Shown here: positions 19,250-61,986 of the stretch, in pieces
Layout: the number at the start of each line of letters is the position of its first letter
Position numbering within the stretch: position 1 is the first letter of the stretch
Source of the DNA: Patescibacteria group bacterium
GTDB taxonomy: Bacteria; Patescibacteriota; Minisyncoccia; Phycocordibacterales; UBA9973
Direction of reading: 5' to 3'
NCBI GenBank assembly: GCA_038078255.1
Contig: JBBUEH010000002.1
Coordinates: 7,534 to 71,533, forward strand
DNA: 64,000 nucleotides
Notes under the pieces: model-generated
Databases searched by the model: none
Told to the model about the DNA's origin: nothing
Seen by the model: the letters and a program-made list of their open reading frames with translations, nothing else
Program-made: the position numbers and the translations under genes

Positions 19250-19951
19250 TCATCCTCGCTTCTTCCACGCATCGATAAGTTTATGATTCCCAGAGAGTAA
19301 AACTTTCGGTACTTTATAATTCTTACCCCCATATTTTAGAACTTCCGGTCGAGTGTAAACTTCGCTACTTGAGACTCTTTCTTCTTCTAGAGATTCATAT
19401 TTACCCAAGACTCCGGGAATTTGACGCGAGATGCAATCGATCAGAACCATCGCTGGAAGCTCGCCACCAGTCAGCACATAATCCCCAATTGAAATTTCTT
19501 CCAGCCCTCCAGGGGCGAGTAAACCTTTGAGAATTTTCCCTACTCTTGCATCTATGCCTTCATATCTGCCAGAAATTAAAATAATATCCGTGTATTTCTG
19601 CTTCACCAACTTTTTCGCATAAGTTGTGTCGAACTTTTTACCAGAGGGAGAAAATAAAATAATCTTTATTGTCCCTTTCTTAGCTTTCTTGTCCGCCATA
19701 GCTTTAGCGACGGCAGAAAGCAGTGGCTCGGCTTTCATCACCATTCCGGGTCCGCCACCGTAGGGCTTGTCATCTACTGGACGATACCCATTATCTTTCA
19801 GCGCCCCGCCACGGCGGGCAGGCTTTATAAAATCACGAGGATTATAGAAATTAAAATTTATTAATTTATTCTTCACCGCCCGCCCGATAATAGACTCTTT
19901 GAGATAAGAATCGAACATCTCCGGAAAAATTGTAATAATATGAAATTTCAT
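19250..19951 (-). CDS. trmD: tRNA (guanine37-N1)-methyltransferase TrmD
   Basis: SPOUT fold; conserved GRYEGIDARV.. and C-terminal [15 protein letters not shown]...[10 protein letters not shown]. Confidence 0.9.
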   Translation of the reverse strand: MKFHIITIFPEMFDSYLKESIIGRAVKNKLINFNFYNPRDFIKPARRGGALKDNGYRPVDDKPYGGGPGMVMKAEPLLSAVAKAMADKKAKKGTIKIILFSPSGKKFDTTYAKKLVKQKYTDIILISGRYEGIDARVGKILKGLLAPGGLEEISIGDYVLTGGELPAMVLIDCISRQIPGVLGKYESLEEERVSSSEVYTRPEVLKYGGKNYKVPKVLLSGNHKLIDAWKKRG

Positions 19952-20775: not shown

Positions 20776-21000
20776 TTTATTTACGGGGCCGCCTTTTTTT
20801 CTTACTTCATTCTTTCTTCTCCTTTCTTCCGAACAGGGTTCGGAAGAACCTTCTCACCCTCCACCCCACCGGGGGTGGAGGGGGGTTCAGAAACAGGGGG
20901 TTGGAGAGATGCTCAAAAGATCCTCCCCAACCCTCGTTCCTCAGGGAAAACCGACTTGATCGGGTTTCCCTGCACCATCCTGTAACCATGGTGTGGTTCC
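20776..21000. repeat. structured GC-rich intergenic block: GCGGCCCCGT..ACGGGGCCGC hairpin plus a cluster of palindromes sharing the AGGGGGTTGG / CCTCCCC cores of repeat family 1; possible structured RNA
   Basis: GC content is far above the local background. It contains CTTCCGAACAGGGTTCGGAAG, CCTCCACCCCACCGGGGGTGGAGG and CAGGGAAAACCGA..TCGGGTTTCCCTG hairpins. The overlapping ORF 20807-21037 is judged spurious. Confidence 0.45.
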
Positions 21001-35303: not shown

Positions 35304-36753
35304 CTAAATTTTTTTCTATTATTTTATTTCCTTCATTGTACGCCACATGCATTTCTTCCCCATTTTTCTTAAACACTGTTCCTATTTCAAAAATTTTTAT
35401 TTCACTTAGGCCTAGAAATGAGGCATTTATTTTATTTAATTTTACACTCTCCAGCAATCCATCACTCAAATTCGTTCTCAAGAATTTTTTATCAGAAGCA
35501 CTTTGCATAACTTCTACTTCGCCCTTATCTCTAAAAGTATAAGTCATCACTTCATTGTATCCATCAGCTAATAATTTCTTCCTCACCCATTCTATTTTGG
35601 CGTAAGTTTCATTTACTTTAGGTTTAAAGTTTATTTTAGGTATATTCCCTTTTATTTTATCGTAACCCAAAATTCTTCCTATCTCTTCCGCCATATCTTC
35701 TTCTATCTCTAAATCAAGGCGCATCATCGGCACAGTTATTTTGAATACTCCTTTGTTTTCTGTATATACAAAATTATATCTTTTCAAAATATCTTCAATC
35801 TCATCACTCGACACATTCAAACCTAAAATTTTAGAAATTCTCTCTGCTGAAAAAGAAAGCTTTCGCTCTGCCTGTTTCTCTGGATAAGTATCTACAATGT
35901 CTTCAAACACTGCCTCTGGACACATCTCTAGAACTAAAGCCGAGAGTTCATGCATGGCATATGACGCAAGCTCGGGTGATAAATCATTTTCGAAACGCTT
36001 TCTGGCATCGGTAAAAATATTAAGCGCTTGACCTGTTTTTCTAGCAAACACTGGATCAAAATTATCAGCTTCCAAAATAAGGTCGGTCGTGGAAGTCGTA
36101 ATTTCTGCGTATTTGCCTCCCTTGATGCCCGTATCAAGCGGATTTCCTTCTCCGTCAGAAATAATTACCATTGTATTATTTAATTCCTTTTCTTCTCCGG
36201 TAAGTAAAGTTATTTTTTGTCCATTTTGAGCAGCGTTAATATTTAATCGAGCACCCTTTACTTTATTCAAATCAAAAGCATGAGTGGGTTGCCCACAATC
36301 AAACATCACTAAATTCGTTGCATCTACTATATTATTTATTGATCTCTGCCCAATTGATTCTAAATGTTTTACTACCCACTCTGGTGAAGGACCAATTTTT
36401 ACATTACGCACAATGCGCCCGACATGTCTGCGATCTTTTGCTGTATTTATTTCTATTTTTAATTCAGTTGGCTTGGATTCTGGAATTTTATATTTTGCCG
36501 TTGGATCAACAAAGTTAATATTCAAAAGTGAGGCAAGTTCACGAGCAATGCCTAGATGAGAAAGTAGATCATGCGCCCGATTTGGCAAAATATTTATATC
36601 AAAAATAAAATCACCACCCCCAGCCCCCTCCTCCCCAAGGAGGGGAGTTAGACTCTCAACCTCAGCAATATGATAAGTAATAATATCTGCTAGCTTCTCT
36701 GCTTCTGGAGCATCCGGTATATACCATTTAAGCCAATTGTAAGAAATTTTCAT
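35287..36753 (-). CDS. pheT: phenylalanyl-tRNA synthetase beta subunit (reduced form), C-terminal domain split off
   Basis: N-terminal MKISYNWLKWYIPDAP... and B3/4 and B5 core. Carries an in-frame family-1 element (LLGEEGAGGGD). Confidence 0.8.
36613..36650 (-). repeat. family-1 GC-rich palindromic element in frame in pheT
   Basis: CTCCTCCCCAAGGAGGGGAG hairpin. Shares AAGGAGGGGGNTGGGGGTGGT with the rnr and recG copies. Confidence 0.6.
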
Positions 36754-41138: not shown

Positions 41139-43250
<2,112 letters not shown>

Positions 43251-43305: not shown

Positions 43306-44319
43306 TTAATCTATTTCAATAGCGTTAATTTGAGCGTTATCCACAACTGTGATAAATTGAATTATAATTTGACCGCTTCCGTTTGCAGTAGCAGAAAAAC
43401 TTTTATCCACCGCCTTAAAATTAGACCCGACATCTTGAATTATATCAAAATTTGTAAGCACAGATGTGCCATTTATATTTACATTAAAAACTCTTTGTCC
43501 TGGGCTACTCCAAAAAATTTCTGCAAACTTTAGTATCACAGTATAAGATGCGCTAGGTGTTAGACCTGTTACAGTATAAGTCATATTTCCATATCTTAAG
43601 TCCTGATAAAGTGTCTGATCGCTAGTTCCGATAATGGAATTAGTCGTTGAATATAGACTTCCACCTGAAAAACTATTATCTGCGCTCCAACTTCTAGAAA
43701 GTGAATCTGTATAAGCTCCACCTCCAGAATTTATCAAAGCAACCGGTACGACTGAAGCCGCCCCAACCCCATAGCTAGCTTTAATCTCTCGTTCAATACG
43801 ATTCGGGTTAGATGAATTGCAAGAGGGATCGCCAATATTGTATCCTTTGGAAGTGAGGGTGGTGACGATAAAAGGAGGATCGATGGCGGCATCTTTAAAA
43901 ACACTTACCTTGGCGCAACTTGTCCCATTATTACTCAAACCAGTAACAAGAAAAGTGTAAAGTCCTGTATTAGTTCCGGCAGAATAAGTAGGTATGCCAG
44001 CTGCGCAAGTCAAGGCTGTGGCCGGCCCAGCTACGGAGAATTTACTAACGGGCTTATCATTCATGAGCGCGCATTCGATGCCAGTATCAGCCGCAAAAAA
44101 GGCTTCATTGGTGTCTTTCGCCGAAGTGCTAAATTTCATTTCTTTAAGCGTAATATTAGAAACACCCAAAGCTATTGCCAAAATAAGGCTGGAGAGCGTC
44201 ACGGCAAAAAGGATGACGAATCCTTTTTTATTTTTAATTTTTAATATTATTTTTATCATTTGATTTAACGAAATCATGCCGCGCAATCGTCCATTAAAGC
44301 GCAGCGCTATTCTATCCAA
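43306..44319 (-). CDS. large minor-pilin-like protein (PilX/GspK-like) with prepilin-type N-terminus
   Basis: KKGFVILFAVTLSSLILAI N-terminal hydrophobic segment; secreted beta-rich remainder. Confidence 0.45.
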   Translation of the reverse strand: MDRIALRFNGRLRGMISLNQMIKIILKIKNKKGFVILFAVTLSSLILAIALGVSNITLKEMKFSTSAKDTNEAFFAADTGIECALMNDKPVSKFSVAGPATALTCAAGIPTYSAGTNTGLYTFLVTGLSNNGTSCAKVSVFKDAAIDPPFIVTTLTSKGYNIGDPSCNSSNPNRIEREIKASYGVGAASVVPVALINSGGGAYTDSLSRSWSADNSFSGGSLYSTTNSIIGTSDQTLYQDLRYGNMTYTVTGLTPSASYTVILKFAEIFWSSPGQRVFNVNINGTSVLTNFDIIQDVGSNFKAVDKSFSATANGSGQIIIQFITVVDNAQINAIEID

Positions 44320-44927
44320 TTAAATAAATTCTCAGAAAAAACAACACTATAATTACCAGAACCCTGCGACCAAGAAACAGTGGAAATAATTTTTGTTTCG
44401 TCGGCGCTTACCACCACTGTTCTAATTTTTCTAGTTAGACCAGAAGCTGTCCCAGAAAAACCATATTTGCCTGTCGCAGAATTGTACAAAAGAGCTCCAT
44501 TGGAACAAGTAGAAGATGCGCAAGCAGTCAACGCAATATCAATCATTGGTTGGGTACTATCACTATAATTTAAACTATCAGCGTTAATATAACAACCGTT
44601 CACCCCGTTGCAGGCAGAAATATCAACCAGGGTGGCATTAAAATTATTCCAGCCTGTCTGCGCTCCGCCAGAATAAAGCATATAAGTATCCCGCATATTT
44701 CTCATATATTCAACACCCTCTTGCGCCAAATATGAAGCAATGACTTTCCTTTTGGCATAGCCTGTATTGGAAATCCCTTGAGCTAAAATCCCAAGCAATG
44801 CCAAAATCGATGCGGTAAAAATTGAAACAGCCACCAGCATTTCTACTAAAGTAAAGCCCCGCCTGCAAAAGCTATGCTTTAAGCATGGCGGGCAGGCCTT
44901 CTTCTTTTGTTTGCGAAAAAGTTTCAT
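44307..44927 (-). CDS. type IV (pseudo)pilin-like protein with 24-aa leader containing an in-frame family-2 palindromic insertion
   Basis: CRRG/FTLVEMLVAVSIF prepilin cleavage motif and hydrophobic helix. The leader MKLFRKQKKK[ACPPCLKHSFCRR]G. Confidence 0.6.
   Translation of the reverse strand: MKLFRKQKKKACPPCLKHSFCRRGFTLVEMLVAVSIFTASILALLGILAQGISNTGYAKRKVIASYLAQEGVEYMRNMRDTYMLYSGGAQTGWNNFNATLVDISACNGVNGCYINADSLNYSDSTQPMIDIALTACASSTCSNGALLYNSATGKYGFSGTASGLTRKIRTVVVSADETKIISTVSWSQGSGNYSVVFSENLFNWIE
44859..44897 (-). repeat. family-2 GC-rich palindromic element (39 nt = 13 codons) inside the prepilin leader
   Basis: GCCTGCCCGCCATGCTTAAAGCATAGCTTTTGCAGGCGG, homologous to 48197-48268 and 60076-60114. 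Confidence 0.65.
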
Positions 44928-45583: not shown

Positions 45584-46237
45584 CTAATTCACCTGCACCC
45601 TGCCTGAAGGATAAAGTTTTATTTTAGCAGTCGCTCCTTTGGGAGAAAGAATATTGATCTCGACATAATAAATCGAGGAGGCAAGAGGAGGATTTGATTT
45701 AATGATAGCGCCTGAGTTGGGTCTCATAAAGGTGACTGTGAGATTATTTATGGGATTAGGGGTGGTCGGAGTGCCGGAATAAAAAACATTCATGCTAGAA
45801 ATAGTGTTGCCCTTGGTAATGGTGATTTTCTCTAGACATTCCCCAGTGCCCGGACAAGTAGAAGCTTCATATAAACCGTTTTGTGAAGGATTTTTAAAAT
45901 CAGTGAAAAAAGTAAAACTTTTATTGTCCGCTATCCGATCGACAAAAACTCCATAAGACGGTTTCCAGGTTGGATCACTACTCGTATAGGTACTTTGGGC
46001 GACTGGAGGGAATTTACCAGAAAGAGATGCTTTCTGCGCTTCCACTACTTTCAAAGCGATATCACTGGCCAAAATTTTAATATCTATCTGCGCTTGAAAT
46101 CCTCCGTAATTATAAACAACGATAGAAGACATGACCGAAATAATAGACAGGACAACAATCAGCTCCACATAAGTCATTCCCCCATTCTTTTTTAATTTTT
46201 TTAATAAAAGTAACATAAAATTAAAAACCAACAGCAA
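45584..46237 (-). CDS. type IV minor pilin / pseudopilin
   Basis: KKNGG/MTYVELIVVLSIISV prepilin N-terminus. Confidence 0.55.
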   Translation of the reverse strand: MLLVFNFMLLLLKKLKKNGGMTYVELIVVLSIISVMSSIVVYNYGGFQAQIDIKILASDIALKVVEAQKASLSGKFPPVAQSTYTSSDPTWKPSYGVFVDRIADNKSFTFFTDFKNPSQNGLYEASTCPGTGECLEKITITKGNTISSMNVFYSGTPTTPNPINNLTVTFMRPNSGAIIKSNPPLASSIYYVEINILSPKGATAKIKLYPSGRVQVN

Positions 46238-47036
46238 AAAAGTTTAACTGCAAGACAAACGCTACGAATGCGCCACCAACCAAATATATAGCAAAAGGAA
46301 TTTCACTTTTCATTCCGTAACCCCAACCATAAATCTTGGAGAAGAAAATAAGCCCAAGCCCGGTCAGGGCTCCAGAAAAAAAAGCCAAGACAAGGGCAGA
46401 AAGCACAGCCGGGAAACCGAGGAGCCATCCGAGTCCTAAAATAAGTTTAGCGTCTCCGAGACCCATCCAAGCGCCCCGAGACACAAGCCAAAGCAGAGCA
46501 AAGGGTAAGGCTACTAATATTCCAGACAAAAATTCTAACAACGAAGGAATATGCGGAAAAAATCCATAACTATTATTAAAGATAAATAAACCAAAAAACG
46601 CTAAAATTCCAAAAAGAAAAACAAGGGTGTCGGGAATTATCTTATGCCTTAAATCATAAACTGCAACAATCATTAGAATAGAAAACATGCTGGCGTAATA
46701 TAAATAAGAAATGACGAAGTCTAGAATAGATAAAAGAAAAAGATCTTGAAACTTAAAAAACAAAATAACGAAAATTAAGCCAGTGATGACTTCAACCAAG
46801 GGATAGATGTGTGATATTCGTGTCTGACAAGTTCTACATCTTCCTTTAAGAGCCAGAAAACTAAACAATGGCACAAGATCATACCAAGCAAGATTGTACT
46901 GACAAGACATGCAGGCGCTTCTTCCACCAAAAGATTTTTTGGTATTGAGCCGGCAAATTACAACATTTAAAAAACTCCCAATAATAAGACCCAGAATAAA
47001 GAAAACAAAAGAAATGAGAGGAAGAATGGATATCAT
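46221..47036 (-). CDS. pilD: prepilin peptidase (A24 family, PilD/ComC)
   Basis: Polytopic membrane protein; the IGSFLNVVICRL and LGDAKLILGLG Asp-containing motifs are characteristic of A24. Confidence 0.85.
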   Translation of the reverse strand: MISILPLISFVFFILGLIIGSFLNVVICRLNTKKSFGGRSACMSCQYNLAWYDLVPLFSFLALKGRCRTCQTRISHIYPLVEVITGLIFVILFFKFQDLFLLSILDFVISYLYYASMFSILMIVAVYDLRHKIIPDTLVFLFGILAFFGLFIFNNSYGFFPHIPSLLEFLSGILVALPFALLWLVSRGAWMGLGDAKLILGLGWLLGFPAVLSALVLAFFSGALTGLGLIFFSKIYGWGYGMKSEIPFAIYLVGGAFVAFVLQLNFFAVGF

Positions 47037-47047
47037 TTTAAATTATG

Positions 47048-47575
47048 TTAATTGCAAGTAAAACTGCTACTATTGATAGCTCCTGCGGGGACAGAATTTA
47101 CCATTTTGGCTGTTCCTGTAGTATCTACGCACCAAGAAGTGCCTAGTGTTAATTTCAAGCCCACGGCCACAGCCCAAGCATTGGCGGAGTTATAACAAGA
47201 ACTGCCATTGCCTCTCTTGATTGCTTCGGCTAAAGCATCAGCGATAACTTTGTCTTTAGACAGCATGTTGGTCCCCTGTGGGTCATAGTTAGGACAAGCG
47301 CCAGCAACATTAACGCCACCAGCTGGCAAATATGAATTAAGATTATTCAGAAAAAAAATTTCAGCCACTTGTCGCAAGGTAGCTAAATTAGTCTTGACAG
47401 CTGTATCATTACCTTTATTCCTAGCATCACCCGAGTTAACTAAAATAACTGACGCCAAAACACCGATAATCGCCACGACAACTAAAAGTTCAATCAAGGT
47501 AAACCCGCCCCCCTTCGGGGTCACACCAAATTTTGGTGTGCGGGTAAATCCTTTTTCTAAATTTATTTTTTTCAT
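47048..47575 (-). CDS. type IV pilin with 24-aa leader carrying a 36-nt palindromic insertion flanked by a 9-bp direct repeat
   Basis: MKKINLEKGFT[RTPKFGVTPKGGGFT]LIELLVVVAIIG, with the canonical G/FTLIELL processing site. Confidence 0.75.
   Translation of the reverse strand: MKKINLEKGFTRTPKFGVTPKGGGFTLIELLVVVAIIGVLASVILVNSGDARNKGNDTAVKTNLATLRQVAEIFFLNNLNSYLPAGGVNVAGACPNYDPQGTNMLSKDKVIADALAEAIKRGNGSSCYNSANAWAVAVGLKLTLGTSWCVDTTGTAKMVNSVPAGAINSSSFTCN
47498..47551 (-). repeat. palindromic mini-insertion CGCACACCAAAATTTGGTGTGACCCCGAAGGGGGGC flanked by direct repeats GGATTTACC / GGGTTTACC (TSD-like)
   Basis: Perfect palindrome CACACCAAA|TTTGGTGTG plus ACCCGC/GCGGGT outer arms. Insert plus one DR is 45 nt (15 codons) and duplicates the GFT cleavage tripeptide. 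Confidence 0.65.
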
Positions 47576-48196: not shown

Positions 48197-48268
48197 CCTG
48201 CCCGCAATGCTTTCAGCATACCCGCCAGCAACGCTTCGCATAGCGATGCGGGCTGGGCCTGATGCAGG
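48197..48268. repeat. family-2 GC-rich palindromic element, intergenic copy (with internal expansion)
   Basis: CCTGCCCGCAATGCTTTCAGCATACCCGCC...CGCATAGCGATGCGGGCTGGGCCTGATGCAGGCGGG. Same termini (CCTGCCCGC[A/C]ATGC...GCAGGCGGG) as the 44859 and 60076 copies. Confidence 0.6.
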
Positions 48269-48285
48269 CGGGATCTAGCTAATTT

Positions 48286-49494
48286 CTAGCTAATTGACCC
48301 AGCCAAATTGTAAATCGGTATTAAGATAGAAACAAGCAATATTCCAACAGCTAAACCTAAAACCACAATCATCACTGGCTCTATCAAGCCGACCAATGTA
48401 TCAATTGCATCATCTACTTCCCGTCTGTAGAAATTTGTTAAAGTTTTTAAAATAGTTCCGAGCGAACCTGTTTCTTCACCCACTTGCACCATTTGTACTA
48501 GAATATTTGGTATTTCATTTCTATGTTTTGAAAGCGCAATAGAGAAAGATAAGCCAGACTTTACTCCATCCGCCACTTCTCTGAGGGCGCTTTTATATAC
48601 AAGACTGCCGACAACATTCGCAGTAATGTCTATCGCTCGAACTATCGGCACACCCGAAGTCAGCATTGTATCCATATTGTCCGTTACTCTAGAGAGATAA
48701 AGTTTTCTATAAAGATTGCCTATAAGAGGCATAGATATGCGCATTCCATCTAAATATTCTTTTCCTCTTTCTGTAGAAGATAGTCGCCAAAGCCAAATAG
48801 AGAGAAGCACCAAAAAAATCAGAACAATGAAACCGTAATTAACAAAAAAGGTCGAAATCGCTATAACTATCTGAGTATAGAAAGGCACCTCTTGTCCAGA
48901 ATCCAGAATGATTGCGGAAAGTTTCGGGATCACCAACACAAACATCAGAGTCATCACAACAAAAAAAGTAATAATAACAAAAATTGGATAGATGAGCGCA
49001 TTTCGAGCTTTAGAAGTAAGGACATATTGGCGATCTAGGTATTCTGCTAAATGTAAGAATGTTTGATTTAACTTCCCCGTTTCTTCACCCACCTTCACCA
49101 TGTTGATATAAAAATCTGAAAATACATCAGGATGGTGAGCCAGAGCCCCAGAAATGGAGCTCCCTGCTTGAAGATCGTCGGTGATTTCTGTGAGTTTACG
49201 ACTCAAAAGTTTGTTTTCCGTATTGGTTGCAAGCATAGTAAAAGATTTGAGCGCCGAGACTTGCGCTTCAAATAAAGTTGCAATTTGACGAGACAGAATC
49301 ACAATCTCTCTGTTTGATATTTTTTCAAACAGAGAATGAGAAAAAAATGATTTGGCTTCTGTCTCGTCTTTAATGGAAATAATGACAAATCCCCTTCTCT
49401 GGAGTCCGCTAATTGCCATATCACGATTGGGCGCGTCAATGTCTCCTTCTTTATTTACTCCCCCATCATCAATTGCTTTATATTTAAATAACAT
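48286..49494 (-). CDS. pilC: type IV pilus assembly platform protein PilC (GspF family)
   Basis: Two T2SS_F repeats and three transmembrane helices. Confidence 0.9.
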   Translation of the reverse strand: MLFKYKAIDDGGVNKEGDIDAPNRDMAISGLQRRGFVIISIKDETEAKSFFSHSLFEKISNREIVILSRQIATLFEAQVSALKSFTMLATNTENKLLSRKLTEITDDLQAGSSISGALAHHPDVFSDFYINMVKVGEETGKLNQTFLHLAEYLDRQYVLTSKARNALIYPIFVIITFFVVMTLMFVLVIPKLSAIILDSGQEVPFYTQIVIAISTFFVNYGFIVLIFLVLLSIWLWRLSSTERGKEYLDGMRISMPLIGNLYRKLYLSRVTDNMDTMLTSGVPIVRAIDITANVVGSLVYKSALREVADGVKSGLSFSIALSKHRNEIPNILVQMVQVGEETGSLGTILKTLTNFYRREVDDAIDTLVGLIEPVMIVVLGLAVGILLVSILIPIYNLAGSIS

Positions 49495-59233: not shown

Positions 59234-59320
59234 GGATGAGTGGGTGAGTGGCTTAAACCAGCGGTTTACTAAACCGCCGTCCCTTTAAAAGGACCGTGAG
59301 TTCGAATCTCACCTCATCCG
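59234..59320 (+). tRNA. class II (long-variable-arm, G73) tRNA with atypical anticodon loop UUACUAA (apparent anticodon ACU)
   Basis: Acceptor GGATGAG/CTCATCC; 3-bp D-stem; anticodon stem GCGGT/ACCGC; variable arm GTCC-CTTTAAAA-GGAC; T-arm GTGAG-TTCGAAT-CTCAC. Confidence 0.55.
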
Positions 59321-59381
59321 CCTTCGGTTTGCAATAGCGAACCTTTAATGTAATGAAATCAATTATAGAAAATAAAAAAAT

Positions 59382-59723
59382 ATGAAAGATTTATCTCCAA
59401 TTATTTTAAGAATAGGAATCGGATTAGTAATAATCTGGTTTGGTTTACAACAAATTAATACTCCCCTTGCTTGGGTTGTATATCTACCAACTTTTACAGA
59501 GAACCTGCCAATCAGTCAGACAACTTTTGTTTCCTTGAATGGATATTTCGAATTAATCTTCGGGATTTTGCTCGTAGCGGGATTTTTTACTAGAATTGTT
59601 GCTTTTTTCTTGGCATTACATCTCTTAGGAATAGTTTTGACTGTGGGGTATAACGAAATAGGTGTTCGGGATTTCGGTATTTTTATTGCCCTAGTCTCAA
59701 TTTTCTTATATGAAATGGAGTGA
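59382..59723 (+). CDS. DoxX-family small membrane protein
   Basis: RIGIGLVIIWFGLQQ and three or four transmembrane helices. Confidence 0.45.
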   Translation: MKDLSPIILRIGIGLVIIWFGLQQINTPLAWVVYLPTFTENLPISQTTFVSLNGYFELIFGILLVAGFFTRIVAFFLALHLLGIVLTVGYNEIGVRDFGIFIALVSIFLYEME

Positions 59724-61986
59724 CAAATTAGAATTAAAATTCCGCTTAGATGAAAAACAAAAAAAAGCTTTGCGTAAGCTGAAACTTTTCTCGGTGGCTG
59801 ATCTCTTATACCACTTCCCTGTCAGATATAGCGACATAAGTACAGTGAAAAAAATTAGCGAACTAATTCCCGGTGAAATTGCCACGATCTATGGAAAAGT
59901 TTCAAATTTAAAAACTAAAAAAGGTTTCCACTCCAAGATTCCCATGGCAGAAGGCACGATTGAAGATATCTCTGGAAAAATAAAAATTATTTGGTTCAAC
60001 CAAGCGTATCTGGCAAAAATGCTTCATGAAGACGATAGCGTTAAACTCACGGGCAAGGTGACTCAAAGTAAAAGTCCTGCCCGCAATGCCTCCAGCATAG
60101 CTGGCGCAGGCGGGGGTATATACCTAGCCAATCCAGAATTTGAAAAAGTGCCAGATATGCCAATAGATGCGCATGATACTCTTTTTAGACCCCCTCGCCC
60201 TTTGGGCACTCCCCCTTCGCAGGGGGAGAGGATTCCTCCCCGCCTTAAGAAGGAGGGGGCAGGGGGTGGTCTCTCTTACCCCATCTATGCTGAGACCCGT
60301 GGAATAACTTCCAAGTGGTTTTATCATGCGATTGAAAAATTCTTGAGAGAAAAAACTCTCGATGGTGTTGCAGACTATCTTCCGAGTGATATTTTAAAAA
60401 AATATAATTTACCAGCCTTGAAAACTTCGTTCATCTGGATTCATAAACCGAAAAATAAAAACGATGCTGAATCTGCGAGGAAAAGATTTGCCTTTGAGGA
60501 AGTTTTTTGCATCCAACTCGAACGACAACATGACAAATTTGAATATAGGAAAAATAAATCTTTCCAAATTGTTTCGGAAAAAGAAAATGTTGAGAAGTTT
60601 TTAAAACGCTTTCCTTTTGAACCCACAAATTCTCAAAAAAAATCCATTGAAACAGTACTGGAAGATATGTCAAAAGATTTTCCAATGTCCCGTCTGCTTG
60701 AAGGAGATGTAGGGTCTGGGAAAACTGCCGTAGCGGCAACGGCAAGCTATATAACAGTGGCGCAAAGACCCTTCGACCACACTCAGGGCAAGCCACAAAA
60801 TTTCGGTAATCTGCAGGTTGCCTACATGGCACCGACAGAAATACTAGCCACCCAACACTTCGAATCATTCATTGAATATTTCCAACATCTGCCAATCAAT
60901 ATCGGACTGATTACTGGATCCGGTTGTCGTAAATTTCCTTCCAAAGTAAATCCGAGTGGCTGGACCACCATCTCTCGAGCACAACTATTGAAGTGGGTAG
61001 CCAATGGAGAAATACCAATTCTAATCGGCACCCATGCCCTCATTCAAAAAACAGTTAAATTTAAAAACTTGGCGCTCGTGGTAATAGATGAACAGCATAG
61101 ATTTGGCACGGAACAAAGAAGGAGATTAGTTAAAAAAGATGGACTGGCACCACACCTCCTCTCCATGACTGCCACTCCCATCCCTCGCACCCTGGCGTTC
61201 ACTATTTATGGCGATCTCGATCTCTCCCTCCTCGATGAAATGCCTCTGGGACGAAAACAAATAATTACAGAAATTATTCCGCCCAATAAAAGAGAAGAAA
61301 CTTACGAACAAATCAAGCAGGAATTAAAAAACGGCAGACAACTTTATGTAATTTGTCCGAGGATATTTGCACCTGACCCTGAAAAAGAATTAGCGCTGAA
61401 TGTAAAGTCTGCCACAGAAGAAGCTAAGCGATTAAAAAAAGAAGTTTTTCAAAAATATGAAATAGGCGTCTTGCACAGCCAGATGAGTAAAATTAAAAAA
61501 GAAGAAATAATGAAGGAATTTGCGAATGGCAAATTGAATATTCTCTGCGCCACCTCGGTAGTAGAAGTGGGTGTCAATGTGCCGAATGCTACAGTGATTG
61601 TTATTGAGGGCGCTGAACGGTTTGGTCTAGCCCAACTTCATCAACTTCGTGGACGAGTCATCCGAAGTAACCATCAAGCGTATTGCTACATTTTTGCCGA
61701 TGCTAAAAGTGACAAGACAATTGCCAGATTAAAAGCTCTCAAAACTGCCAAGAATGGCTTTGAATTAGCTGAACTTGACTTGACCCTCCGGGGCGCAGGC
61801 GAACTCGGCGGGACCAAACAGTGGGGCATCACCGACCTCGGCATGGAAGCGATTAAAAATATAAAAATGGTAGAAGCCGCCCGCACTGAAGCTATAAGAA
61901 TAATAGCCGAAGACCCTGAACTAAATAAATACCCTCTGCTTAAACAAAAAGTTCATGAAAAAGCTGGAGAATTCCATTTTGAGTAA
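59710..61986 (+). CDS. recG: ATP-dependent DNA helicase RecG with two in-frame palindromic-element insertions in the N-terminal domain
   Basis: RecG N-terminus (LGI.TV.DLLYHFPVRY), helicase motifs I to VI and C-terminal TRG motif. Insertions at 60076-60114 and 60189-60270. Confidence 0.9.
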   Translation: MKWSDKLELKFRLDEKQKKALRKLKLFSVADLLYHFPVRYSDISTVKKISELIPGEIATIYGKVSNLKTKKGFHSKIPMAEGTIEDISGKIKIIWFNQAYLAKMLHEDDSVKLTGKVTQSKSPARNASSIAGAGGGIYLANPEFEKVPDMPIDAHDTLFRPPRPLGTPPSQGERIPPRLKKEGAGGGLSYPIYAETRGITSKWFYHAIEKFLREKTLDGVADYLPSDILKKYNLPALKTSFIWIHKPKNKNDAESARKRFAFEEVFCIQLERQHDKFEYRKNKSFQIVSEKENVEKFLKRFPFEPTNSQKKSIETVLEDMSKDFPMSRLLEGDVGSGKTAVAATASYITVAQRPFDHTQGKPQNFGNLQVAYMAPTEILATQHFESFIEYFQHLPINIGLITGSGCRKFPSKVNPSGWTTISRAQLLKWVANGEIPILIGTHALIQKTVKFKNLALVVIDEQHRFGTEQRRRLVKKDGLAPHLLSMTATPIPRTLAFTIYGDLDLSLLDEMPLGRKQIITEIIPPNKREETYEQIKQELKNGRQLYVICPRIFAPDPEKELALNVKSATEEAKRLKKEVFQKYEIGVLHSQMSKIKKEEIMKEFANGKLNILCATSVVEVGVNVPNATVIVIEGAERFGLAQLHQLRGRVIRSNHQAYCYIFADAKSDKTIARLKALKTAKNGFELAELDLTLRGAGELGGTKQWGITDLGMEAIKNIKMVEAARTEAIRIIAEDPELNKYPLLKQKVHEKAGEFHFE
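60076..60114 (+). repeat. family-2 element in frame in recG (encodes SPARNASSIAGAGGG)
   Basis: CCTGCCCGCAATGCCTCCAGCATAGCTGGCGCAGGCGGG, near-identical termini to 48197-48268. Confidence 0.65.
60189..60270 (+). repeat. family-1 element in frame in recG (encodes PPRPLGTPPSQGERIPPRLKKEGAGGG)
   Basis: GGCACTCCCCCTTCGCAGGGGGAGAGG (B module) followed by AAGGAGGGGGCAGGGGGTGGT (A module 3' half). Hairpins CCCCCT-TCGC-AGGGGG. Confidence 0.65.

Follow-up and report, generated by a model that had tools for sequence, protein, structure and literature searches.

The question raised by this locus is what three short and similar palindromes represent in a 64,000-nucleotide stretch of a Patescibacteria group bacterium (GCA_038078255.1, contig JBBUEH010000002.1, positions 7,534 to 71,533; hereafter the window), where one lies in frame in the leader of a type IV prepilin gene, one is intergenic beside pilC and one lies in frame in recG. 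The analyses below indicate that they probably belong, as orphan (solo) copies, to a dispersed 36-39-bp hairpin repeat, whose partner form, resembling the Ssn nuclease-repeat systems discussed below, lies beside genes for mini GIY-YIG nucleases. The solo copies are precise insertions that recur at permissive sites and nest in one another's loops.

Three copies of a hairpin repeat in the window

The three copies (Table 1) shared the end pattern CCTGCCCGC[A/C]ATGC...GCAGGCGGG, and the 14-mer CCTGCCCGCMATGC had three exact matches in the window, at 44883-44896 (minus strand), 48197-48210 (plus strand) and 60076-60089 (plus strand). With up to two mismatches allowed there were five matches against 0.26 expected, a number that none of 100 shuffles reached. 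A looser two-arm scan of the window gave only these sites as convincing, with two further matches without a matching core where about two were expected by chance. The site at 19809-19822 (CCTGCCCGCCGTGG...) was considered as a further copy and was not counted, its fold being no better than those of shuffled sequences. The stretch 19792-19830 on the minus strand (CCTGCCCGCCGTGGCGGGGCGCTG) has the 5' arm of the element without the remainder and is perhaps a remnant or a chance match.

An initial annotation of this DNA had described a repeated imperfect palindrome in three copies, of which the pilin leader and recG each held one in frame and the third was intergenic with a secondary expansion. 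All three copies were present and aligned far better than chance, both genic copies were 39 bp and in frame, and the expansion of copy 2, which lies 14 nt past the pilC stop codon, proved to be a nested, related hairpin of 36 bp. This nested hairpin was a covariance-model match of 51 bits (E 1.4e-9), and its arm variant was also found upstream of GIY-YIG genes in two other loci (L136, L157). The boundaries were revised: copy 1 occupies 44858-44896, the span of 44859-44897 given before being exactly the thirteen inserted codons, and copy 2 ends at 48272, not 48268. The view of the repeat as a local family of three did not survive, as it is very widespread and occurs in several phyla.

The window belongs to a Nomurabacteria-like Patescibacteria genome of Hainich groundwater. 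It has a G+C content of about 38%, and its minus strand carries a type IV pilus cluster of several N_methyl pilins, PilD, PilC and a PilT-like ATPase.

Table 1. Copies of the hairpin repeat in the window, their host genes and relevant neighbours
Feature	Position	Strand	Description
Copy 1 hairpin	44858-44896	-	39 bp, CCTGCCCGCCATGCTTAAAGCATAGCTTTTGCAGGCGGG, in frame in prepilin leader; peptide ACPPCLKHSFCRR from 44859-44897
PilV-like minor pilin gene, host of copy 1	44307-44927	-	Pfam N_methyl, residues 22-45; leader MKLFRKQKKK[insert]G|FTLVEM
Prepilin peptidase PilD, A24 family	46221-47036	-	Pfam A24_N_bact and Peptidase_A24; context only, enzyme expected to cut the extended leader
Copy 2 composite element	48197-48272	+	76 bp, pilC-pilin spacer; outer element with nested insertion in its loop
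Nested related hairpin	48221-48256	-	36 bp, arm variant CCAGCCCGC..GCTGGCGGG, inside the loop of copy 2
PilC gene	48286-49494	-	Pilus cluster member
Copy 3 hairpin	60076-60114	+	39 bp, CCTGCCCGCAATGCCTCCAGCATAGCTGGCGCAGGCGGG, in frame in recG; peptide PARNASSIAGAGG
recG, host of copy 3	59710-61986	+	Pfam RecG wedge and helicase domains

Hairpin structure and covariation

The hairpin is maintained as a structure by compensatory change in its stem. Each window copy folded into CCCGC/GCGGG, then TGC/GCA and then a 5-bp inner stem closing an ATA loop, with predicted DNA fold energies of -12.6 to -13.4 kcal/mol, and the inner stems of the copies varied in pairs (AAAGC/GCTTT, CCAGC/GCTGG and TCAG../..CTGA). 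Across the family the ends were conserved and asymmetric (CCTG-CCCGC-AA-TGC ... GCA-G-GCGGG) and the inner stem-loop was variable with its pairing kept.

As MAFFT set the inner stems of the 36- and 39-nt forms out of register, a covariance-model alignment was used instead, the model being trained on 24 copies of 36 nt. The model found 79 sites, representing 63 distinct sequences, in 300 kb of loci not picked by element sequence. In these 63 sequences, counts from which are biased toward structure because the alignment was model-fitted, pair 12:30 was T-A in 42 and C-G in 14, pair 16:26 was A-T in 28, T-A in 19 and G-C in four, pair 17:25 was C-G in 35, T-G in seven and A-T in six, and the outer five pairs were nearly invariant. 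Stem differences at the orthologous pilin site are independent of that fit: two lineages differed there in a compensatory manner, with inner stems of AAAGC/GCTTT in one and ACAGC/GCTGT in the other (P0144). At a site in ribosomal protein S9 common to two loci (L011 and L088) the inner stems were ACGC/GCGT and TCGC/GCGA.

Insertions in the prepilin leader and recG

Among 120 homologues of the host pilin, labelled PilV or PulG by their sources, the leader was typically 10-16 aa long with a mode of 11 and ended in G|FTLVE, compared with 24 aa in the window pilin, which bears out the leader extension from about 11 to 24 aa in the initial annotation. The copy directly precedes the G|FTLVE cleavage motif, which is intact, and a PilD gene is adjacent, so the insert should be missing from the mature pilin, as had been proposed, if PilD removes the leader as expected. 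The orthologues P0121, P0126, P0131, P0141, P0144 and P0148 had the same element at this site, with the frame also unchanged, and its persistence in at least six diverged orthologues whose genes are intact supports a tolerance of leader extension. The leader of P0122 held a decayed element, and that of P0123 held the 36-bp form in a different reading frame, which points to an independent insertion. The emphasis formerly placed on the Cys/Pro-rich product was misplaced: the same DNA encodes PARNASSIAGAGG in recG and frame F0 prevails elsewhere, and the CP..C peptide is a by-product of the reading frame and not a property of the element. An in-frame TGA is avoided in the pilin copy because its stem variant is AAAGC/GCTTT.

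The thirteen residues encoded by copy 3 were missing from all 119 of the closest RecG homologues (76-82% identity), which read K[SNQ]-G-IYLANPEF at this point. The insert falls in a turn within the wedge domain, an OB fold, the Pfam wedge match ending at residue 120. Comparison of an empty site, AAAAGT|GGAATA (L226), with the filled site of the window, AAAAGT|39 bp|GGTATA, indicates a precise 39-bp insertion without target-site duplication. A second GC-rich insert in recG, at 60186-60282, encodes PPRPLGTPPSQGERIPPRLKKEGAGGG, belongs to another palindromic family and is polymorphic in presence and length among the RecG homologues.

Unrelated hairpins occupied the same points in both genes. At the exact RecG site P0024 carried a hairpin with a perfect 12-bp stem, CCCCACACCTTT..AAAGGTGTGGGG (L227:~560-605), that adds thirteen residues (GIYPHTF..KG.) and was also found in P0005, P0014 and P0063. 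At the leader point there were hairpins encoding FTRTPKFGVTPKGG and others, including one in another gene of the window (47048-47575). This reuse marks both positions as hot spots, through targeting, permissiveness or both. In the gene at 47048-47575 the second lengthened leader contains a different composite hairpin (47495-47550, minus strand) with a fold z of -4.3 and GGRTTTACC direct repeats at its flanks, positioned just before G|FTL, and this insert was also found in P0143, P0153, P0154, P0186, P0195 and P0217, orthologues of the pilin that hosts copy 1.

Distribution of the repeat family

A scan of one genome per species (GTDB) with the pattern CCTGCCCGCNATGCN{8,38}GCAGGCGGG returned at least 119 loci. 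According to the record titles of the metagenome-assembled genomes (MAGs) these came from many Patescibacteria classes, Verrucomicrobiota, Kiritimatiellia, Lentisphaerae, Gammaproteobacteria, Bdellovibrionales and one Woesearchaeota MAG, and the Gammaproteobacteria matches included contigs of 341 and 621 kb. Among the matches listed the commonest form was 36 bp, CCTGCCCGCAATGCT[T/A]CGCATAGCG[A/T]TGCAGGCGGG, and the others included 39-bp forms with TCAGC-ATA-GCTGA and longer ones with extra hairpins in the loop.

Reading frames were counted for 124 copies, comprising 122 from the listed loci and the two 39-bp copies of the window. About two thirds lay in open frames of 100 aa or more and were mostly 36 or 39 bp long. 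Copies occurred in either gene orientation and in five reading frames; of the 85 in such open frames, 64 were in sense orientation and 21 antisense, and the frame reading PARNA...AGG accounted for 47. Ribosomal protein S9 and GrpE were among the protein hosts, with the copies in their N-terminal tails. Copies survive in coding DNA only if their length is divisible by three and the frame stays open. The flank preference was weak (A-rich|G).

Among the IMG/VR viral contigs eighteen stretches carried the element. A group of related viral contigs (L208-L225) has a G+C content of 48-54% and several identical copies, CCTGCCCGCAATGCTTCGCAACGCGAGGCAGGCGGG, embedded in a larger conserved repeat with the flanks ttctctgtgtcc and tctgtgtcctct, with no GIY-YIG gene nearby. 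BLASTN with the 36-mer found no match in the PLSDB plasmid or INPHARED phage collections, which cover cultured organisms, and Rfam searches of copy 2 and a nuclease-linked copy at permissive thresholds (E up to 10) gave noise only, far below gathering scores. A full-text literature search with the element sequence on both strands returned nothing relevant, and one for palindromic or in-frame repeats in Patescibacteria returned no description of the element.

Association with a mini GIY-YIG nuclease and tRNA genes

Clustering of the open reading frames (ORFs) of the at least 119 loci, each of 8 kb or less, identified a sole recurrent neighbour, a mini GIY-YIG protein of about 80-95 aa, at eight loci, and in five of these the hairpin lay 10-70 nt upstream of the nuclease ATG. 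The initial annotation had recognised the palindromes and missed this partner beside tRNA genes. The Pfam GIY-YIG domain covered nearly all of the 79-92-aa protein, and the only other match was a weak, overlapping one to T5orf172.

The association was then tested in reverse by searching metagenome contigs with the three closest nuclease proteins, a seven-sequence alignment being too diverse, and the best 80 of 470 relatives gave 68 non-redundant loci with sufficient flank. The hairpin was found at most 130 nt upstream of the nuclease gene in 61 of the 68 loci, downstream only in four and not at all in three. The background rate in the same loci was 0.019 hairpins per 130 nt, or one solo copy per 6.7 kb (24 solo matches in 162 kb of partner loci), corresponding to an enrichment of about 47-fold. 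On the same strand, 3-26 nt past the nuclease stop codon, a tRNA gene was present in 59 of the 68 loci, and these tRNAs were diverse in identity (Gln, Leu, Lys, Ile, Asn and others). The cognate tRNA had its first 7-26 nt repeated upstream of the ORF in at least 33 of 53 loci, with the hairpin inside the repeat, at a position in the tRNA fragment that varied (acceptor, D-arm) and in either orientation.

The plan common to these loci has a nuclease ORF with a duplicated stretch of host sequence at its flanks, one copy of which bears the hairpin. The duplicated tRNA fragment of one locus (L189) was without a hairpin, and in three (L127, L181 and L197) hairpin-bearing repeats flanked the ORF on both sides. 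In another (L147:2300-2900) the stop codon that precedes the nuclease ORF belongs to a gene resembling an aminoacyl-tRNA synthetase, and a diverged duplicate of the last ~70 nt of that gene lies downstream of the ORF, interrupted by the hairpin. The typical cassette (L121-L200, for example L122:994-1380 and L151:270-650) runs from a 5' fragment of a tRNA, whose D-arm bears the hairpin, through a GIY-YIG ORF of about 79 aa to the intact tRNA, and in several cassettes a D-loop remnant, TATAAT or TCTAAT, lies right before the ATG.

Interpretation and alternative explanations

The Ssn enzymes are single-domain GIY-YIG proteins of about 94 aa that bind the hairpin repeats NTS/SRM and cleave only single-stranded DNA near the repeat, and the ssn genes are flanked by repeats (Chenal et al., Nat Commun 2025, PMC11893778). 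The interaction of SsnA with NTS has a modulating effect on transformation in Neisseria, where the NTS cluster near surface-protein genes; neither tRNA nor Patescibacteria are mentioned in that paper (PMC11893778). The SsnA reference used here was a GIY-YIG ORF of 94 aa, taken from an N. gonorrhoeae chromosome listed with the PLSDB plasmids and identified as ssnA because it has the length of N. meningitidis SsnA (PMC11893778) and is surrounded by 16 NTS repeats. By BLASTP the Patescibacteria mini nuclease was 41% identical to this SsnA over 71 aa (47 bits), and it scored 49 bits against an Azospirillum homologue flanked by canonical SRMs and 43 bits against B. subtilis YazA, the score between SsnA and YazA being 26 bits.

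We favour the reading of the window copies as solo members of the nuclease-linked repeat. The nuclease would recognise the folded hairpin on single-stranded DNA, in replication or after DNA uptake, and would spread or retain copies, directly or via repair, as has been proposed for NTS/SsnA and REP/RAYT. The nesting of copies in loops fits insertion at single-stranded hairpin tips. The window copies would be without host function: the copy in the pilin would merely lengthen a leader that PilD removes and so be neutral, the recG copy would amount to thirteen extra residues in a surface turn and the intergenic copy 2 would also be neutral.

Several points weigh against this reading. No GIY-YIG gene was found in the 64-kb window by motif or hidden Markov model search, the tie between hairpin and nuclease is one of tight positional linkage from which we infer binding, cutting and moving, and to our knowledge no GIY-YIG enzyme is a transposase. 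Selection for permissive positions, and not targeting, could account for the reuse of sites. The phylum assignments derive from the titles of MAG records, and some short contigs are perhaps misbinned. The nuclease clade appears about as near YazA (43 bits) as SsnA (47 bits), leaving its membership of the Ssn family proper (cd10448) unproven, and the published SRM consensus HGTCWYN(0-2)YYVSBRHN(0-5)WNVSBRGN(0-2)RNCYNB had no match in the window or in any hairpin of L121-L200, with nine matches in N. gonorrhoeae and four in Azospirillum as positive controls. Canonical SRM-type repeats (e.g. TGTCATTCCCGCGAAGGCGGGAATCCAT) were seen at L196:999-1026 and L123:966-991, on contigs with the Patescibacteria-type nuclease, and two repeat systems may coexist on such contigs.

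A broader proposal, which we hold tentatively and with some doubt, is that the hairpin and the ~80-aa GIY-YIG gene form an undescribed mobile unit. Such a unit would be a hairpin-guided cassette that inserts by tRNA genes, occasionally by the ends of protein genes, with duplication of the target piece, the hairpin being borne by one of the two copies, that seeds genomes with in-frame solo hairpins and that has moved between bacterial phyla and possibly phages and archaea.

Other explanations of the repeat were weighed against the solo-copy reading. A domesticated host function, in which the hairpins mark DNA for an Ssn-like nuclease policing incoming single strands in transformation and are kept by selection, including near pilus or competence genes, appears unlikely. 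It would accord with the role of SsnA/NTS in Neisseria (PMC11893778), with the type IV pilus cluster holding two of the window's three copies and with the compensatory maintenance of stems even within genes, but three copies are insufficient for a claim of clustering, the placement in leaders, loops and N-terminal tails seems opportunistic, some lineages show decay (the P0122 and P0123 leaders) and the window is without a nuclease gene. We consider it improbable that the element is REP-like and mobilised by an IS200/IS605-type tyrosine (Y1/RAYT) transposase acting on single-stranded hairpins. In its favour, the element is a short GC-rich imperfect palindrome with a non-palindromic end that gives orientation and is inserted without target duplication, and the sense-strand bias of 64 to 21 recalls strand-biased single-strand transposition; yet the neighbourhoods surveyed held the GIY-YIG gene and no recurrent transposase-like neighbour, the association with the nuclease is about 47-fold, and the copies have no GTAG or CGTC tag and are mostly intragenic, unlike REPs.

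Two further explanations locate the function in the transcript or in the protein. A structured RNA element active in transcripts, such as a terminator, an attenuator or a protein-binding hairpin, would explain a stable, covarying hairpin and the position of copy 2 just past the pilC stop. It is nonetheless very improbable given the occurrence of copies in both orientations to genes and in five reading frames, the absence of a U-run after copy 2, the absence of an Rfam family even at E up to 10 and the inactivity of SsnA-type enzymes on RNA (PMC11893778). Hardest of all to credit is a selected peptide module, for instance an extension of the pilin leader that is Cys-rich and binds metal or regulates: a CxxC...C motif is conserved in several orthologous leaders (ACPQCLKHSFCRR), but the same DNA yields unrelated peptides in recG, S9 and GrpE, conservation is at the nucleotide level and extends to the intergenic copy, and hairpins unrelated to this one also sit at that leader site.

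Other palindromes and tRNA genes in the window

Further short GC-rich palindromes of a CCCCTC../..GAGGGG type occur in the AT-rich window at 42907-42938, 20846-20900, 36610-36649 and 42177-42212, one palindrome of this type lying in ligA, where it encodes thirteen residues. These are probably the 'Family 1' of the initial annotation. At 59234-59322 on the plus strand ARAGORN predicted a tRNA-Ser with the unusual anticodon ACT, which adjoins a tRNA-Ser(GCT) on the opposite strand.

Implications

The interest of the repeat lies in a cross-phylum hairpin that enters essential genes in frame, in the mini GIY-YIG nuclease, linked to tRNA genes, that is its partner and in a pairing open to experiment. 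Many odd segments of 12-13 residues in Patescibacteria proteins (RecG, S9, GrpE and pilin leaders) would pass from lineage-specific protein traits to footprints of one hairpin repeat, a reannotation that bears on alignments, phylogenies and structure predictions of reduced genomes. The independent lengthening of type IV prepilin leaders at one point by several unrelated hairpins shows the tolerance of prepilin peptidase for leader length.

The arrangement of a hairpin repeat with a mini nuclease, described only in 2025, would reach uncultivated phyla, and an extension of the Ssn type would bring with it a different recognition hairpin, a tRNA-linked layout and mostly intragenic copies. The ~80-aa nuclease and the 36-nt hairpin (CCTGCCCGCAATGCTACGCATAGCGTTGCAGGCGGG) form a testable enzyme-substrate pair and a candidate tool for cutting single-stranded DNA. 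Were the mobile-unit proposal true, the nucleases would be new site-specific single-stranded-DNA enzymes with a defined 36-nt recognition hairpin.

Comparison with known systems

Several known classes of repeat and structure were considered and rejected. The spacing is too irregular for a CRISPR repeat, the R'/R'' cores of an integron attC site are absent and there is no AGC triad or GNRA loop as in domain V of a group II intron. The element is too long for a DNA uptake sequence and is conserved across phyla. As an intrinsic terminator it lacks a T-run after copy 2 on the gene strand, and two of the three window copies are inside ORFs. An assembly or adapter artefact does not fit copies that are internal to long contigs, come from many independent studies and have unique flanks.

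The Rickettsia palindromic elements (RPEs) are reportedly selfish palindromes found in frame in coding genes, including essential ones (Ogata et al. 2000). They are about 100-150 bp long and confined to Rickettsia. The element described here shares with RPEs the in-frame colonisation of genes, the tolerated peptide segment and a small AT-rich genome, and differs in its size of 36-39 bp, its cross-phylum range and the identification of a candidate partner enzyme. Miniature inverted-repeat transposable elements too are small, non-autonomous, multi-copy insertions, whereas the present element is about ten times smaller and has neither insertion-sequence-derived terminal inverted repeats nor a target-site duplication.

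Repetitive extragenic palindromes (REPs) are short GC-rich hairpins that lie outside genes, bear GTAG or CGTC tags and are paired with HUH/Y1 enzymes (PMC3733652). REP/RAYT systems resemble the present one in their dispersed GC-rich hairpins, in a nuclease gene flanked by its own repeats and in a presumed action on single-stranded DNA, whereas the element here is mostly intragenic, untagged and paired with a GIY-YIG enzyme.

The closest comparison is with Ssn/SRM, which the element and its nuclease would resemble in their working without being demonstrably a member. The present system differs in having an unrelated hairpin sequence and a cassette linked to tRNA genes, in which a 5' fragment of the tRNA is duplicated. 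Its copies are intragenic in about two thirds of cases, compared with 2% for NTS (PMC11893778), and most of its hosts belong to uncultivated Patescibacteria and PVC lineages. Common to both systems are multi-copy, oriented, imperfect hairpins of 20-50 nt, represented here by the 36-39-bp element with 3+1 copies per 64 kb, and the position of the repeat beside a single-domain GIY-YIG gene of about 80-95 aa, with repeats on both sides of that gene in the three loci noted above.

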